Below, piece after piece: positions 57,476 through 61,437 of a stretch of DNA of 64,000 nucleotides. The DNA comes from an uncultured delta proteobacterium (GTDB lineage Bacteria; Desulfobacterota; RBG-13-43-22): positions 1,216,001-1,280,000 of the forward strand of contig CAWBOS010000010.1 of NCBI GenBank assembly GCA_963790475.1. Direction: 5' to 3'. Every line of letters starts with the position of its first letter. Position 1 is the first letter of the stretch. Made by a program: the position numbers and the translations under genes. Under the pieces are notes generated by a model, which saw only the letters and a list, made by a program, of their open reading frames with translations, did not search any database and was not told where the DNA came from.

Positions 57476-57829
57476 TCAAACATCTCGAGGTTCGGTGAGC
57501 AATTTGAAGCCGTCAAGAATCTCTGTTAACCTATTTTTTGAGACCTGTCCGATTTTATCAACGAGATCACTCTTGTTAACTGTGAAGATTTGAGAAATGT
57601 TAACTACGCTTTTTCGGGGGAGATTGGCTTCACCTTTATTCAGCAGGACATTACCGGGAGCCTTGGCCCGGTGAAGGTTCGTGGTAAGGGAACAAACGAC
57701 CACAGTATTGATTTGACTGGTGTTAAATAGATTGTTTTGAATGACGAGATGGGGATGCCGATATCCCGGTTCCGATCCCTTAGGATCAGAAAGGTCTAGC
57801 CAATAGATTTCACCTTGCTTAATCACCAA
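57476..57829 (-). CDS. mazF: MazF/PemK-family type II toxin
   Basis: QGEIYW, GSEPGYRHP.LVIQ, SVVNISQIFTVNK. Confidence 0.92.
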   Translation of the reverse strand: MVIKQGEIYWLDLSDPKGSEPGYRHPHLVIQNNLFNTSQINTVVVCSLTTNLHRAKAPGNVLLNKGEANLPRKSVVNISQIFTVNKSDLVDKIGQVSKNRLTEILDGFKLLTEPRDV

Positions 57830-58080
57830 GACTCTTTCTCAATCAATTTTTTTTGTTTGCCGCGCATGGATTTTAAGATTCTTCTTTCTTCTTCTTCAGG
57901 AAAGTCTTTATAAGCCTCATTCAACCGGGTCAGCAAAGCCTGATTTTCTTGTTTTTTAACATAGTCTTGCACAGCCAGGGTGAATACCTTGCTCCGGGAA
58001 ATATGCAAGTTATTGGCTAATTTATTAATTTTTAAAAATAATTCTTCATTAAGGGATATAGCTGTTTTGACACCGGCCAT
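57823..58080 (-). CDS. Ribbon-helix-helix antitoxin
   Basis: VKTAISL....ISRS; overlaps the toxin start; GGAGG RBS. Confidence 0.88.
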   Translation of the reverse strand: MAGVKTAISLNEELFLKINKLANNLHISRSKVFTLAVQDYVKKQENQALLTRLNEAYKDFPEEEERRILKSMRGKQKKLIEKESW

Positions 58081-58246: not shown

Positions 58247-58576
58247 TTATCCGTTCTTTAAGGAATCGATCATTTCCACCAACTGAGTTTCATTCAATCC
58301 TCTGCCAATAATCCCATCCAGCCGTTTTGCAATCTTACCATTCTTAAAGAAGATCACCGTTGGTACTACCGCGATAGAATAGTTTTCTTTGCAACTTTTA
58401 ATTTCATCCGTTAAAACACGACATAAATTATTCTGGGTATTCTCGCCATATTTTTCGAAAATCGGCAAAAATCTCTGCGAGTAAGGACACCAAGAGGCAT
58501 AAAAAAGAACCAATAGGCTTGGGCACTCGCTCAACCTCTTATCAAATTCGGATTCGCTTTCAATTATTTTACTCAT
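58247..58576 (-). CDS. Thioredoxin-family protein (CxxS)
   Basis: FYASWCPYS, cis-Pro VVPT, FKNG. ATG 58576 after AAGGAG. Confidence 0.88.
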   Translation of the reverse strand: MSKIIESESEFDKRLSECPSLLVLFYASWCPYSQRFLPIFEKYGENTQNNLCRVLTDEIKSCKENYSIAVVPTVIFFKNGKIAKRLDGIIGRGLNETQLVEMIDSLKNG

Positions 58577-58606: not shown

Positions 58607-59338
58607 TTATATCTCAACTTTACTTCTCCGCTGAAAATCCATAGCCGCTTGCAGGTAGGCGATTATCAGACGGTGCGGGCTGTCGAGGCTTGAAGAAAGC
58701 TGCGGCAGAAAAAGTGTGGCCAAGAAAAAACGATGATCGGGCATCTCTACTATTCTGCCTTCTCCTTTGGAGTCCACCCCGGATATTTTGAGTTCCCCGG
58801 CGCCGATTTTATCCCTATATTGAGGATTCAGGCCATAATTGCAACGGAATTCCTCAACTATTTCTTCTTGCCCATACACCCGGTGGGCCAGGGTGCCTGG
58901 CACGATTTTTATAGTCAGCGCCTGATCGACAAGCGAACAGCTTAATTTGCTGATCACCAGGTTTGCTGCCTTCGGAGCGGATTCTTCGTGCTCCGCATCA
59001 GGGATCCCCAACACATTCCGTGCATACTCTACCAGAGTATGTTGAAACCCTCCTCAGGTTCCCACAAATGGCCAGTCGTTTTCGCGGGCGAATCTAATGG
59101 CCCTCAGGGCCCCGTTCATGCTCTGGTAAGGGCTGCCCGGAGAACACCAAAGGGCGTCAAAATGCTTCAACACCATTTCAGCGCCTTCATCATCCAGCGA
59201 GGGGGTCGGCAGCCAGGAGCAATCCACAATCAGGGACACGGCCCTGGCGGCATGACTTAGGGCGTCATTAGTGGCCGTGTGATACGGGGATTTCGGATCA
59301 AAATCCCCGATGATCCCAACGCGAACGGTCCGGTCCAT
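58607..59338 (-). CDS. Stand-alone CTP-synthase glutaminase-like (class I GATase) protein, probable selenoprotein (UGA at 59056-59054)
   Basis: The ORFs 59054-59338 and 58607-59014 are in one frame and join as PFVGT-UGA-GGFQHTLVEYARNVLG. Hairpin CATACTCT-GGT-AGAGTATG starts 12 nt after the UGA. Confidence 0.85.
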
Positions 59339-59501: not shown

Positions 59502-61043
59502 CCCGGATGTTGCATAAAAAAAGTGCAAATTTTGTAAAGACCGATCAGGCGGCCTTTTTAAAAGCATCCAGATACACAAAAAAGTCTCTTTGGACTGATT
59601 CATTTCCATTAAGCGTCAGGGTTAGTTGCTTTTGGGGTAACGTTAATCTCCCTGCTCTTTGAATAATCAGATGGCGTAAAGTTTTTAATTCTTCAAAACA
59701 CCATAGAGGGGCTCTTTTCTCGGTCGTCCCTCTTTCCCTTGGACGAGCCGCCATTTGTAATTCGCGGGTTAAATTGTGGGCCATGATTGCAGCCATCGTA
59801 TAAAGCTGGTTTCCGCCCCAGCGACGAACAGGGATATAATCCATTTGAGCTTGAGATTTCAATTCTCCAAAGAGTCCTTCCTGGTCGGCGCGCCCATTAT
59901 GGAACATCAATACCTTCTTAGCCTTGACCCGCTTGTTGGTTACGATGACTTTAAATTCGTAGCCTTCCTCCCGAGGAACGAATAAGTCCAGTTGAATCGG
60001 ACCTCGGAAAGCCAGGGAGACTCGTTGACGGATGCACAGGAAACGAAATCGGTTATCCCATTTCTTGGGTTTCCAAAACGTTTCAAACCAAGACCATCGG
60101 TCATCCAGCCGCTTCCAACGTTTTCGCTCCTGGATCATTTGTTTCCATTCGGCAAAACGTTCAAAAGGCACTGACAGAGTAAACTCAACCCCTTGTTCTT
60201 CTAAAAACGGTACGAGGTTATCGTTAAAAAAGGCGCTGTCCAGTCGGGCTTCTATGATTACGCCGGGAAGGGCTTCCTTCAAGAGGCGTAGGCATTGTTC
60301 GATAAATTCCCGTGCTCCATTAGAGTCGTGGACATTTCCGGAACGAAACAGGGTATCGAAAACCTGCCCGGTTTGGGCAATGGTGCAGAACAAAGGATAA
60401 TAACTGCGGGCTCCTTTTTTCTTTTTGTTATACCCCACAGCGGTTCCCTCCGCTCGACGCTGACAGGTCCAAAGAACGGATCCGTCAAAATCCAGTGTCA
60501 GACGAAAAGGAGCCAACTTTTGCAGTCTGGCAATAACCTGGTTCCGGCATAGTTCCCGAACTTTTTCGATGGCCGAAATATCAATCGTTCGCAAAGCGCG
60601 AGAAACCGTTGAGACCTCTGGCAGCCTTTTTAACCCTAATAAACGCTTGATCAAGGGATCATCTTGGTAATAATCCAGATCCCTCAGCTTACGGAAACCC
60701 AGTAAAAGGTGAAAGATCAAAAGAAGCATAATGAGGTGATGACCAAATATCTCGGAAACTTTTAAATGGTCAAAACATTTCTTGAGTTGTGCTTTGAGAT
60801 TCAGGTTCTGGAGCAGTGGCTGATAAATAACTAGCCCGGCAAATGAGGTCAATTGTTGATTTTCAAACTTGATGGCTGGAATTTTAAACATTCGACTAAA
60901 AATATTCCTTTTGCTATACTTCACCTTAGGTGGCCTCCTGTATCGGTTCTTTTGAGATGTGCTAATTTCACTTTAGCCAATACTGGAGCCACCTTCAAGC
61001 ATTTTCATGGTGTTTTATGCACTTTTATTATGCAACTATGAGG
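59502..61043 (-). mobile_element. IS1380-family insertion sequence (1542 bp)
   Basis: Inverted ends CCCGGATGTTGCATAAAAAAAGTGCA / CCTCATAGTTGCATAATAAAAGTGCA (20/26); TATA duplicated at 59498-59501 and 61044-61047. Confidence 0.9.
59545..60924 (-). CDS. IS1380-family DDE transposase
   Basis: LTSFAGL, TLDFDGS, YYPL, RSGNVH, RLDSAF, HNGRA.QE..FGELK. Confidence 0.92.
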   Translation of the reverse strand: MKYSKRNIFSRMFKIPAIKFENQQLTSFAGLVIYQPLLQNLNLKAQLKKCFDHLKVSEIFGHHLIMLLLIFHLLLGFRKLRDLDYYQDDPLIKRLLGLKRLPEVSTVSRALRTIDISAIEKVRELCRNQVIARLQKLAPFRLTLDFDGSVLWTCQRRAEGTAVGYNKKKKGARSYYPLFCTIAQTGQVFDTLFRSGNVHDSNGAREFIEQCLRLLKEALPGVIIEARLDSAFFNDNLVPFLEEQGVEFTLSVPFERFAEWKQMIQERKRWKRLDDRWSWFETFWKPKKWDNRFRFLCIRQRVSLAFRGPIQLDLFVPREEGYEFKVIVTNKRVKAKKVLMFHNGRADQEGLFGELKSQAQMDYIPVRRWGGNQLYTMAAIMAHNLTRELQMAARPRERGTTEKRAPLWCFEELKTLRHLIIQRAGRLTLPQKQLTLTLNGNESVQRDFFVYLDAFKKAA

Positions 61044-61437
61044 TATAGCCTTCAGGAAATCCTTCCGGGGACCCAAACACTTGATACCCCAGCTTCTGAC
61101 AAAATCCAAGCGCCTGAAATTCAAACGTGTCCAGATGCGCGTGTCGGCAACCACAATTGACGACTTCCTGCTCTGCCCGCGCCACAAGTTCCCTGCCATA
61201 ACCCCGACTCCGAATAGACTCCGCCAGCCACAAATGACTGATGAAGAGCCAGCCCCAATGAGTATATCCGTACAAGCCACCCATTATCTCACCTTGTTCA
61301 TCACCGATGAAAATGGCAAGGTGTTGCCAATTTTCTTTTCCCGCCTGAGCGTCATTGTAAGAAACCAAATTTCGAGCCAGAGTGCAAATATCGGCTTCGG
61401 AAGCCTGATCGTCCATCGAAATCATGTAATCTGCCAT
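61044..61437 (-). pseudogene. GNAT N-acetyltransferase interrupted by IS1380
   Basis: LWLAESIRSRGYGREL, LDTFEFQA.GF..KLGY; broken at PEGY. Confidence 0.85.

Follow-up and report, generated by a model that had tools for sequence, protein, structure and literature searches.

A predicted selenoprotein on a CTP synthase glutaminase-type fold, from a family lacking the catalytic histidine

The window, meaning the whole 64,000-nt stretch of DNA analysed here, comes from an uncultured delta proteobacterium and carries a putative selenoprotein gene with a thioredoxin-fold gene on one side and an IS element on the other. The features of this locus are as follows.

58607..59338, minus strand: predicted selenoprotein gene, 243 sense codons plus a TAA stop, with one in-frame TGA
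59054..59056, minus strand: the in-frame UGA, codon 95, predicted to be read as selenocysteine (Sec) and aligned with the nucleophile Cys of CTP synthase
59023..59041, minus strand: SECIS-type hairpin, CATACTCT-GGT-AGAGTATG, a perfect 8-bp stem with a GGU loop
58247..58597, minus strand: thioredoxin-fold gene with a monothiol WCPYS motif (PF00085, 52.7 bits)
58080..57823: 85-aa ORF overlapping the start of the toxin gene, with no Pfam match
57829..57476: MazF/PemK-type toxin gene (PF02452, 93.3 bits)
59509-61036: IS element with 19-nt terminal inverted repeats (59509-59527 and 61018-61036, 95% complementary)
60924..59545: DDE transposase gene in the IS element (PF13701, 128.5 bits)
61437..61036: GNAT acetyltransferase gene, beyond the IS element from the selenoprotein gene

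The 94-aa ORF 59338..59054 and the 135-aa ORF 59014..58607 are the two halves of one minus-strand frame. Re-reading the frame from 59338 to 58607 bore out the single 243-aa product proposed in a preliminary description of this DNA. The sole TGA inside the frame, codon 95, sits in PFVGT-U-GGFQHTLVEYARNVLG, and an AGGAG was found about 9 nt 5′ of the ATG. The gene caller had output only the 135-aa C-terminal piece (P0073). Reassignment of UGA was considered and rejected, because TGA is an ordinary stop elsewhere in the window, where it terminates 19 of the 43 open frames of at least 250 codons. Contigs of four DNA runs were compared with the stretch. One of 763 nt, which comes from a second study and differs at 53 positions over 644 nt, covers the TGA; among the 40 of 78 difference rows listed, none lies at 59054-59056. 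No RNA run was listed as containing the stretch.

The first ATG of the thioredoxin gene lies 9 nt past the selenoprotein stop. An alternative ATG at 58576 follows an AAGGAG at a distance of 5 nt and leaves a gap of 30 nt; it appears the more likely start, and the two genes are probably co-transcribed in this genome. The thioredoxin scored below every thioredoxin equivalog cut-off. The link to a thioredoxin drawn earlier held in so far as the WCPYS protein does adjoin downstream, but the association is confined to the window: no relative of this thioredoxin (E ≤ 1) was found in the 82 other loci compared below, including two of the same genus. In those two, L029 and L030, an HhH-GPD gene lies downstream instead (L029 was scanned, and the L030 ORF clusters with it). 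On the other side, the IS element lies 170 nt upstream of the selenoprotein start, and without it the GNAT gene would adjoin. The 85-aa ORF and the MazF/PemK-type toxin gene probably form a type II pair, with the ORF encoding the antitoxin. A scan of the locus for promoters and terminators returned counts as in shuffled sequences.

The product is a stand-alone CTP synthase C-terminal domain of the class I GATase-like type. It has no CTP synthase N-terminal domain, and its homologs are 233-297 aa long. The Pfam scan returned PF00117 alone (28.2 bits against a cut-off of 22.8). The NCBIfam profile NF004836 matched residues 5-232 at 339.6 bits (cut-off 260; profile positions 1-227/228), and a six-frame search of the genome with the same profile gave 331.9 bits with one TGA inside the match. 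NF004836 carries a selenoprotein label, so the earlier guess that the family might already be labelled in RefSeq was right. PyrG models, on the other hand, reached only about 136 bits against cut-offs of 308-463 and matched with their C-terminal parts; TIGR00337 scored 136.3 bits against 462.75, over profile positions 289-526 only, which falls short of a PyrG equivalog. A full-length pyrG with its own GATase domain is encoded on another contig of the window genome. The database search returned 5241 relatives of similar length at E ≤ 0.001. Solved structures found by sequence search were CTP synthases only, with no NF004836 member among them. The AF2 model (pLDDT 93.9, pTM 0.92) was matched by Foldseek to CTP synthase GATase domains at a TMq of about 0.9. 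For the PyrG glutaminase domain (for example PDB 3nva, 1s1m and 1vco) the Foldseek E value was 8.7e-27 with a TMq of 0.90, and the profile E value was 1.4e-47. The earlier description had the UGA replace the nucleophile-elbow cysteine in a class I GATase fold of the CTP synthase type, and both alignment and fold match agree with this.

Homologous loci were collected by scanning one genome per species. Of 600 candidate stretches, 582 were relatives, and the best 80 of these 582 by similarity were kept; because similarity to the window query decided which were retained, the sample leans to close relatives. Adding the window's own locus and two more of the same genus gave 83 loci. When they were aligned for Cys/UGA alternation, codon 95 was TGA in 20 and TGC or TGT in 63, all at the same column. 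The TGA forms span at least six phyla, and two archaeal MAGs are among the 80 genome loci. The MAGs with TGA forms are labelled as Clostridia, Anaerolineales, Ardenticatenaceae, Dehalococcoidia, Syntrophobacteraceae, Desulfobacula, 'delta proteobacterium', Actinomycetota and Rokubacteria/Methylomirabilota. In 120 database homologs, residue 95 was Cys in 112 (the window's own protein being entered as C), Trp in seven and Leu in one. The Trp entries are the metagenomic homologs P0004, P0005, P0010, P0012, P0016, P0025 and P0074, and the Leu entry is P0053. The seven Trp entries are probably TGA codons rendered as Trp by a gene caller, which would make them further unrecognised Sec forms.

The part of the gene that follows the TGA was compared as well. 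In five close pairs of TGA forms, dN/dS 3′ of the TGA was 0.17-0.34, and the 5′ part gave similar values; as judged by these ratios, the sequence 3′ of the TGA is under purifying selection. The pentapeptide GGFQH comes after the TGA and ahead of any further possible start codon; it was kept in 19 of the 20 TGA forms and reads GGFQY in L064.

The preliminary description had also claimed a perfect 8-bp hairpin 12 nt past the UGA with G in its loop, and both its sequence and its position were confirmed. The hairpin begins exactly 12 nt 3′ of the TGA, so that with a stem of 8 bp the distance from the UGA to the apical loop is 20 nt. Its isolated folding energy is -8.5 kcal/mol. The fit to a bacterial SECIS was judged by the values printed in the legend of Fig. 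2 in PMC13188914, namely a loop of 3-9 nt, a stem of 4-16 bp, a UGA-to-loop distance of 16-37 nt and a limit of -7.5 kcal/mol. Against the bSECISearch consensus in that legend, the window hairpin has a 3-nt loop that opens with G followed by G, an 8-bp stem, the 20-nt distance and the -8.5 kcal/mol; all of these lie within the bacterial values published there, in keeping with the SECIS-like element proposed just 3′ of the UGA. An Rfam scan of the hairpin matched no family and gave only three sub-threshold chance matches.

In stretches of 63 nt and 52 nt of the window's own sequence, the RNAfold minimum favours a longer imperfect stem-loop on the same bases over the 8-bp hairpin (-21 kcal/mol, z -2.03, with 5 of 200 shuffles equally good). 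Among these alternative pairings, the 8-bp hairpin is the form kept in relatives. All eight pairs are present in 12 of the 13 TGA loci with the window's hairpin type (type 1), and seven of eight in the remaining one, L064. Scored in the window's register, 11 of 18 TGA forms have 8/8 pairs, whereas the 57 Cys forms reach at most 6/8. Across phyla, no third codon position within the stem varies, while the glycine codons directly ahead of it do so freely. The seven TGA loci from Rokubacteria/Methylomirabilota, a sister clade, have a different, GC-rich hairpin that starts 11 nt 3′ of the UGA, with energies of -9.1 to -16 kcal/mol in the four that were folded. Covariation is weak: five of the eight pairs never vary, 268 of 500 shuffles score equally high, one pair shows A-U, G-U and one G-C, and only one cell is changed on both sides. 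The case for the hairpin therefore rests on its conservation and on the contrast with the Cys forms.

In a sediment metagenome (run X2), the summed contig depth rose from about 5 to 25-51 over the TGA and the hairpin (58999-59092 of the window), with eight contigs at 59038. The same nucleotide-conserved segment of Sec codon and SECIS thus seems to be carried by several other organisms in the sample.

The genome was searched for the machinery of Sec insertion. SelB (390.6 bits), SelA (629.5 bits) and SelD (394.1 bits) all scored over their cut-offs, the selD gene has an in-frame TGA of its own (GAG-U-ASK), and ARAGORN reported a tRNA-SeC with the anticodon tca; selA, selB, a Sec-containing selD and tRNA-Sec are thus all found in the genome. 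In other genomes, selA scored over the cut-off in 5 of 5 with a TGA form and in 2 of 5 tested with a Cys form. A second selA copy in the window genome (G000), on contig C13 (443305-444664, loci L010-L013), is fragmented into four frame pieces and contains a TAA; the intact copy is found at the beginning of the short contig C20.

These data bear on an alternative in which codon 95 is a real stop created by a nonsense mutation or by splitting of the gene, and the remainder is dead or separately expressed. The frame is indeed broken by table 11, gene callers give the 135-aa C-terminal piece only, and an IS element lies 170 nt upstream. However, 20 loci from different phyla share this TGA, the hairpin goes with TGA forms only, dN/dS is 0.17-0.34 downstream, GGFQH is conserved after the TGA and before any start codon, and the Sec machinery is complete. 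The preliminary description had named a genome without Sec machinery and the absence of UGA homologs as the signs of a nonsense mutation; the machinery is present, and 20 of the 83 loci have the UGA. By these comparisons, both a nonsense mutation and a split gene are effectively ruled out, and the window gene is a case of genuine recoding, for which we infer insertion of Sec. We put the probability that this is a functional NF004836-family selenoprotein gene, its UGA read through with the help of the hairpin, at about 80%. The ribosome at UGA95 would then meet the 8-bp/GGU hairpin acting as a bacterial SECIS, which would recruit SelB with Sec-tRNA(Sec). Sec would be inserted to give the full 243-residue protein, and this would fold as a CTP synthase glutaminase domain with Sec at the nucleophile elbow.

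The distribution of the family was examined on a tree of 80 rows, from which the partial rows L030, L060 and L066 were left out. The Sec label requires three changes on this tree, at least two of which are forced by well-supported branches, and 0 of 500 shuffles were as low. The Sec forms fall in a mixed-phylum cluster with the window, in two small groups and in a Rokubacteria clade. Among 60 relatives of the window genome (61 with G000), the family was found in two, both of the same genus and both with TGA; the 18 remaining matches were full-length PyrG. In a 121-genome sample of the phylum of L050, a Syntrophobacteraceae MAG, the family was found in the genome of L050 alone. Such a sporadic distribution fits an accessory gene that moves horizontally.

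The active site was compared by aligning the family profile to E. coli CTP synthase and counting positions along the alignment. We take the triad of the E. coli enzyme to be Cys379/His515/Glu517. Gly352, Gln383, Glu403 and Arg470 have glutamine-binding roles, Gly352 being the oxyanion glycine. The correspondences from this profile alignment are as follows.

U95: E. coli CTP synthase Cys379
G68: E. coli CTP synthase Gly352
Q99: E. coli CTP synthase Gln383
E119: E. coli CTP synthase Glu403
N167: E. coli CTP synthase Arg470
L211: E. coli CTP synthase His515
Q213: E. coli CTP synthase Glu517

Gly352, Gln383 and Glu403 have counterparts in the selenoprotein, which also shares the nucleophile elbow with the PyrG glutaminase domain. 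Unlike PyrG, the selenoprotein lacks the N-terminal amidoligase domain and about five residues of the GGTMRLG lid, and its family has [VLQ]PQ in place of HPE, has lost the counterpart of Arg470, and has extra invariant cysteines, Cys134 and Cys166, plus His100. In the window protein, F-L-P-Q occupies the place of F/A-H-P-E in CTP synthases, with L211-P212-Q213 aligned to H-P-E; the alignment to solved CTP synthases agrees with the earlier observation that His-Pro-Glu is replaced by FLPQ and the triad altered. At the His position, the 120 homologs have Val (85), Leu (30), Gln (4) or Glu (1), and at the Glu position Gln (110), Pro (8), Ser (1) or Leu (1), so that neither catalytic residue stands in its place in any of them. 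The 83 genome loci have no His either, and Glu in ten, all Cys forms. The Arg470 counterpart is replaced by N, Q, S or D in the 120 homologs. On the other hand, C166 is present in 120/120 homologs and 83/83 loci, C134 in 119/120 and 83/83, and H100 in 119/120 and 82/83. H117 is found in 116/120 homologs, and Q99 and E119 are each found in all 120. C65, a fourth frequent Cys, occurs in only 48 of the 83 loci and is dispensable. The window protein has all the family hallmarks, i.e., GT[C/U]GGFQH, F[VLQ]PQ for HPE, C134 and C166; it is one more member of NF004836, and nothing sets it apart from the family.

The preliminary description had spoken of a glutaminase. As a working enzyme of this kind, the protein would use Sec in place of the catalytic Cys and would deliver ammonia to a partner. 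The CTP synthase GATase fold (TMq about 0.9), the GxCxGxQ elbow and the literature label 'glutamine amidotransferase', as it stands in the available text of PMC12013277 and PMC13188914, speak for it. So does L053 (1324-3690), from an Ardenticatenaceae MAG, where a full-length pyrG (558 aa, CTP_synth_N plus GATase) ends one base before the TGA-containing family gene; this arrangement is the sole case among the 83 loci. Of the canonical Cys-His-Glu arrangement, however, the fold and the elbow were found and the His and the Glu were not. Because the catalytic His is missing from every member sampled (0/120 and 0/83), the family as a whole is unlikely to hydrolyse glutamine in the canonical way; the Glu is missing in 120/120 and 73/83 as well, the counterpart of Arg470 is gone, no partner of the synthase type turns up repeatedly among the neighbours, and the window genome already has a full-length PyrG with a GATase domain. 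We regard a working glutaminase as quite improbable, and this part of the preliminary description was not supported.

We were also interested in whether the genes around the family point to its role. All-vs-all clustering of 526 neighbour ORFs from the 83 loci gave a biggest cluster that spans four loci. A Pfam scan of 58 close same-strand neighbour ORFs found four GNAT, three DinB_2, one Redoxin (L096), one TauE and one full-length pyrG. The GNAT neighbours are not one orthologous partner, because they are only 23-32% identical over partial lengths. With no cluster in more than four loci and no dominant Pfam theme, the neighbourhood was dropped as a guide to function. Rare fusions, each seen in a single entry, pair the domain with DinB_2, GNAT, DJ-1/ThiJ, a transglutaminase core or a lipid A-type acyltransferase. 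Neighbours and fusions give hints of thiol or detoxification chemistry, no more.

Sec normally replaces a redox-active or metal-binding Cys. Among the mechanisms weighed, a selenol/thiol redox centre seems the most likely, and we propose it tentatively, with somewhat less than even odds. The counterparts G68, Q99 and E119 are kept, while the catalytic His, nearly always the Glu, and the Arg470 counterpart have been lost family-wide. In a redox mechanism, Sec/Cys95 would be oxidised or would exchange with a substrate, and C134 or C166 would resolve it. In this genome the probably co-transcribed monothiol thioredoxin could act on the Sec95 centre. With two extra cysteines invariant, conservation speaks more for redox or other non-canonical chemistry than for the non-redox fold of the preliminary description. 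Further hints of redox function are the thioredoxin adjoining in the window, the Redoxin neighbour in L096, and DinB_2 in three loci and in one fusion. The retained G68, Q99 and E119 count against it, as do the non-conserved neighbours, a thioredoxin without relatives in the other 82 loci, and the absence of C65 from 35 of the 83 loci. We rank the redox centre first, acyl chemistry second, a metal site third and a canonical glutaminase last, because the base and its partner are lost, residue 95 is invariant and is Sec in several lineages, and two more cysteines are invariant.

The retention of G68, Q99 and E119 suggests that an amino-acid-like ligand may still be bound, which would fit acyl chemistry equally. 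Sec/Cys95 could then attack a carbonyl to form a (seleno)thioester, with H100 or H117 as the base. The substrate would be another amide or a gamma-glutamyl-type compound; conjugates of low-molecular-weight thiols, processed in concert with DinB-type transferases and GNAT acetyltransferases, are one possibility. The elbow and the three binding residues are kept (Q99 and E119 each in 120/120), and both candidate bases are widespread, H100 in 119/120 and H117 in 116/120. GNAT genes account for four of the 58 same-strand neighbour ORFs, and the window GNAT is parted from the gene only by the IS insertion; DinB_2 neighbours occur in three loci, with single fusions to DinB_2, GNAT, DJ-1/ThiJ and a transglutaminase core. 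However, these GNAT neighbours, at 23-32% identity over partial lengths, do not amount to a single orthologous partner, GNAT and DinB_2 are abundant families, and each fusion is a lone database entry. Moreover, the Arg470 counterpart is lost (N/Q/S/D), and the invariance of C134 and C166 is left unexplained. We know of no hydrolase with Sec as the acyl-accepting nucleophile, which also counts against non-canonical covalent catalysis, and we consider it possible but on balance unlikely.

A metal or iron-sulfur site, with Sec/Cys95, C134, C166 and H100 as ligands and a selenium ligand as in formate dehydrogenase or [NiFeSe] hydrogenase, is less probable again. Three invariant Cys/Sec residues and a near-invariant His do stand in for the hydrolytic triad, and in the AF2 model each candidate ligand lies at or just past the end of a beta-strand (strands 91-94, 126-131 and 159-164). 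Against this, CxxC-type spacing is absent, no metal-handling genes recur nearby (83 loci; 58 neighbour ORFs), and the pLDDT is lower around C134 (75 for the block 131-140), suggesting a mobile loop.

The preliminary description had presented the selenoprotein as hidden, and this does not hold, as the family has already been published as a predicted selenoprotein (PMC12013277; PMC13188914, each as far as its available text goes). According to that text, the selenoprotein predicted by deep-Sep (2025) in Desulfosediminicola ganghwensis is a 'glutamine amidotransferase (COG0504, PyrG)' that has homologs with TGA as well as homologs with Cys (PMC12013277), and the 2026 review tabulates the family with the motif GxUxG (PMC13188914). 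The window protein matches the family predicted by deep-Sep in its GT-U/C-GGFQH motif, its single Sec and its mixture of Cys and TGA homologs. A literature search by family name returned nothing beyond the review PMC13188914. The available text of PMC12013277 and PMC13188914 mentions no function, and it makes no mention of the missing His and Glu, of the invariant C134 and C166 or of two SECIS types. What is added here, as read from the alignments and loci, is the loss of the catalytic His throughout the family and of the Glu in nearly all members, the invariant or nearly invariant C134, C166 and H100, and the non-conserved neighbourhood, with the thioredoxin confined to the window.

As the discovery of a selenoprotein, the window gene adds little, since the family already figures in the NCBI annotation rules and in two recent papers. 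Its interest lies in a widespread family in which Cys or Sec at the elbow is invariant and the rest of the hydrolytic triad has been discarded. A protein that is annotated everywhere as 'CTP synthase' or 'glutamine amidotransferase' therefore very probably does something else, to go by its sequence conservation. The Sec variants single out residue 95 as chemically critical, and natural Sec/Cys pairs together with two SECIS types make this a well-defined family for biochemical characterisation. We would suggest, as a speculation we hold at well under even odds, that NF004836 is no amidotransferase and that its scaffold may have been rebuilt on Sec/Cys95-Cys134-Cys166 (with His100) for redox, chalcogen-transfer or metal-dependent chemistry. 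If this is true, the class I GATase fold would have its first selenoenzymes in the Sec forms, and the scattered associations with DinB_2, GNAT, Redoxin and thioredoxin genes would indicate a function in thiol-based detoxification.
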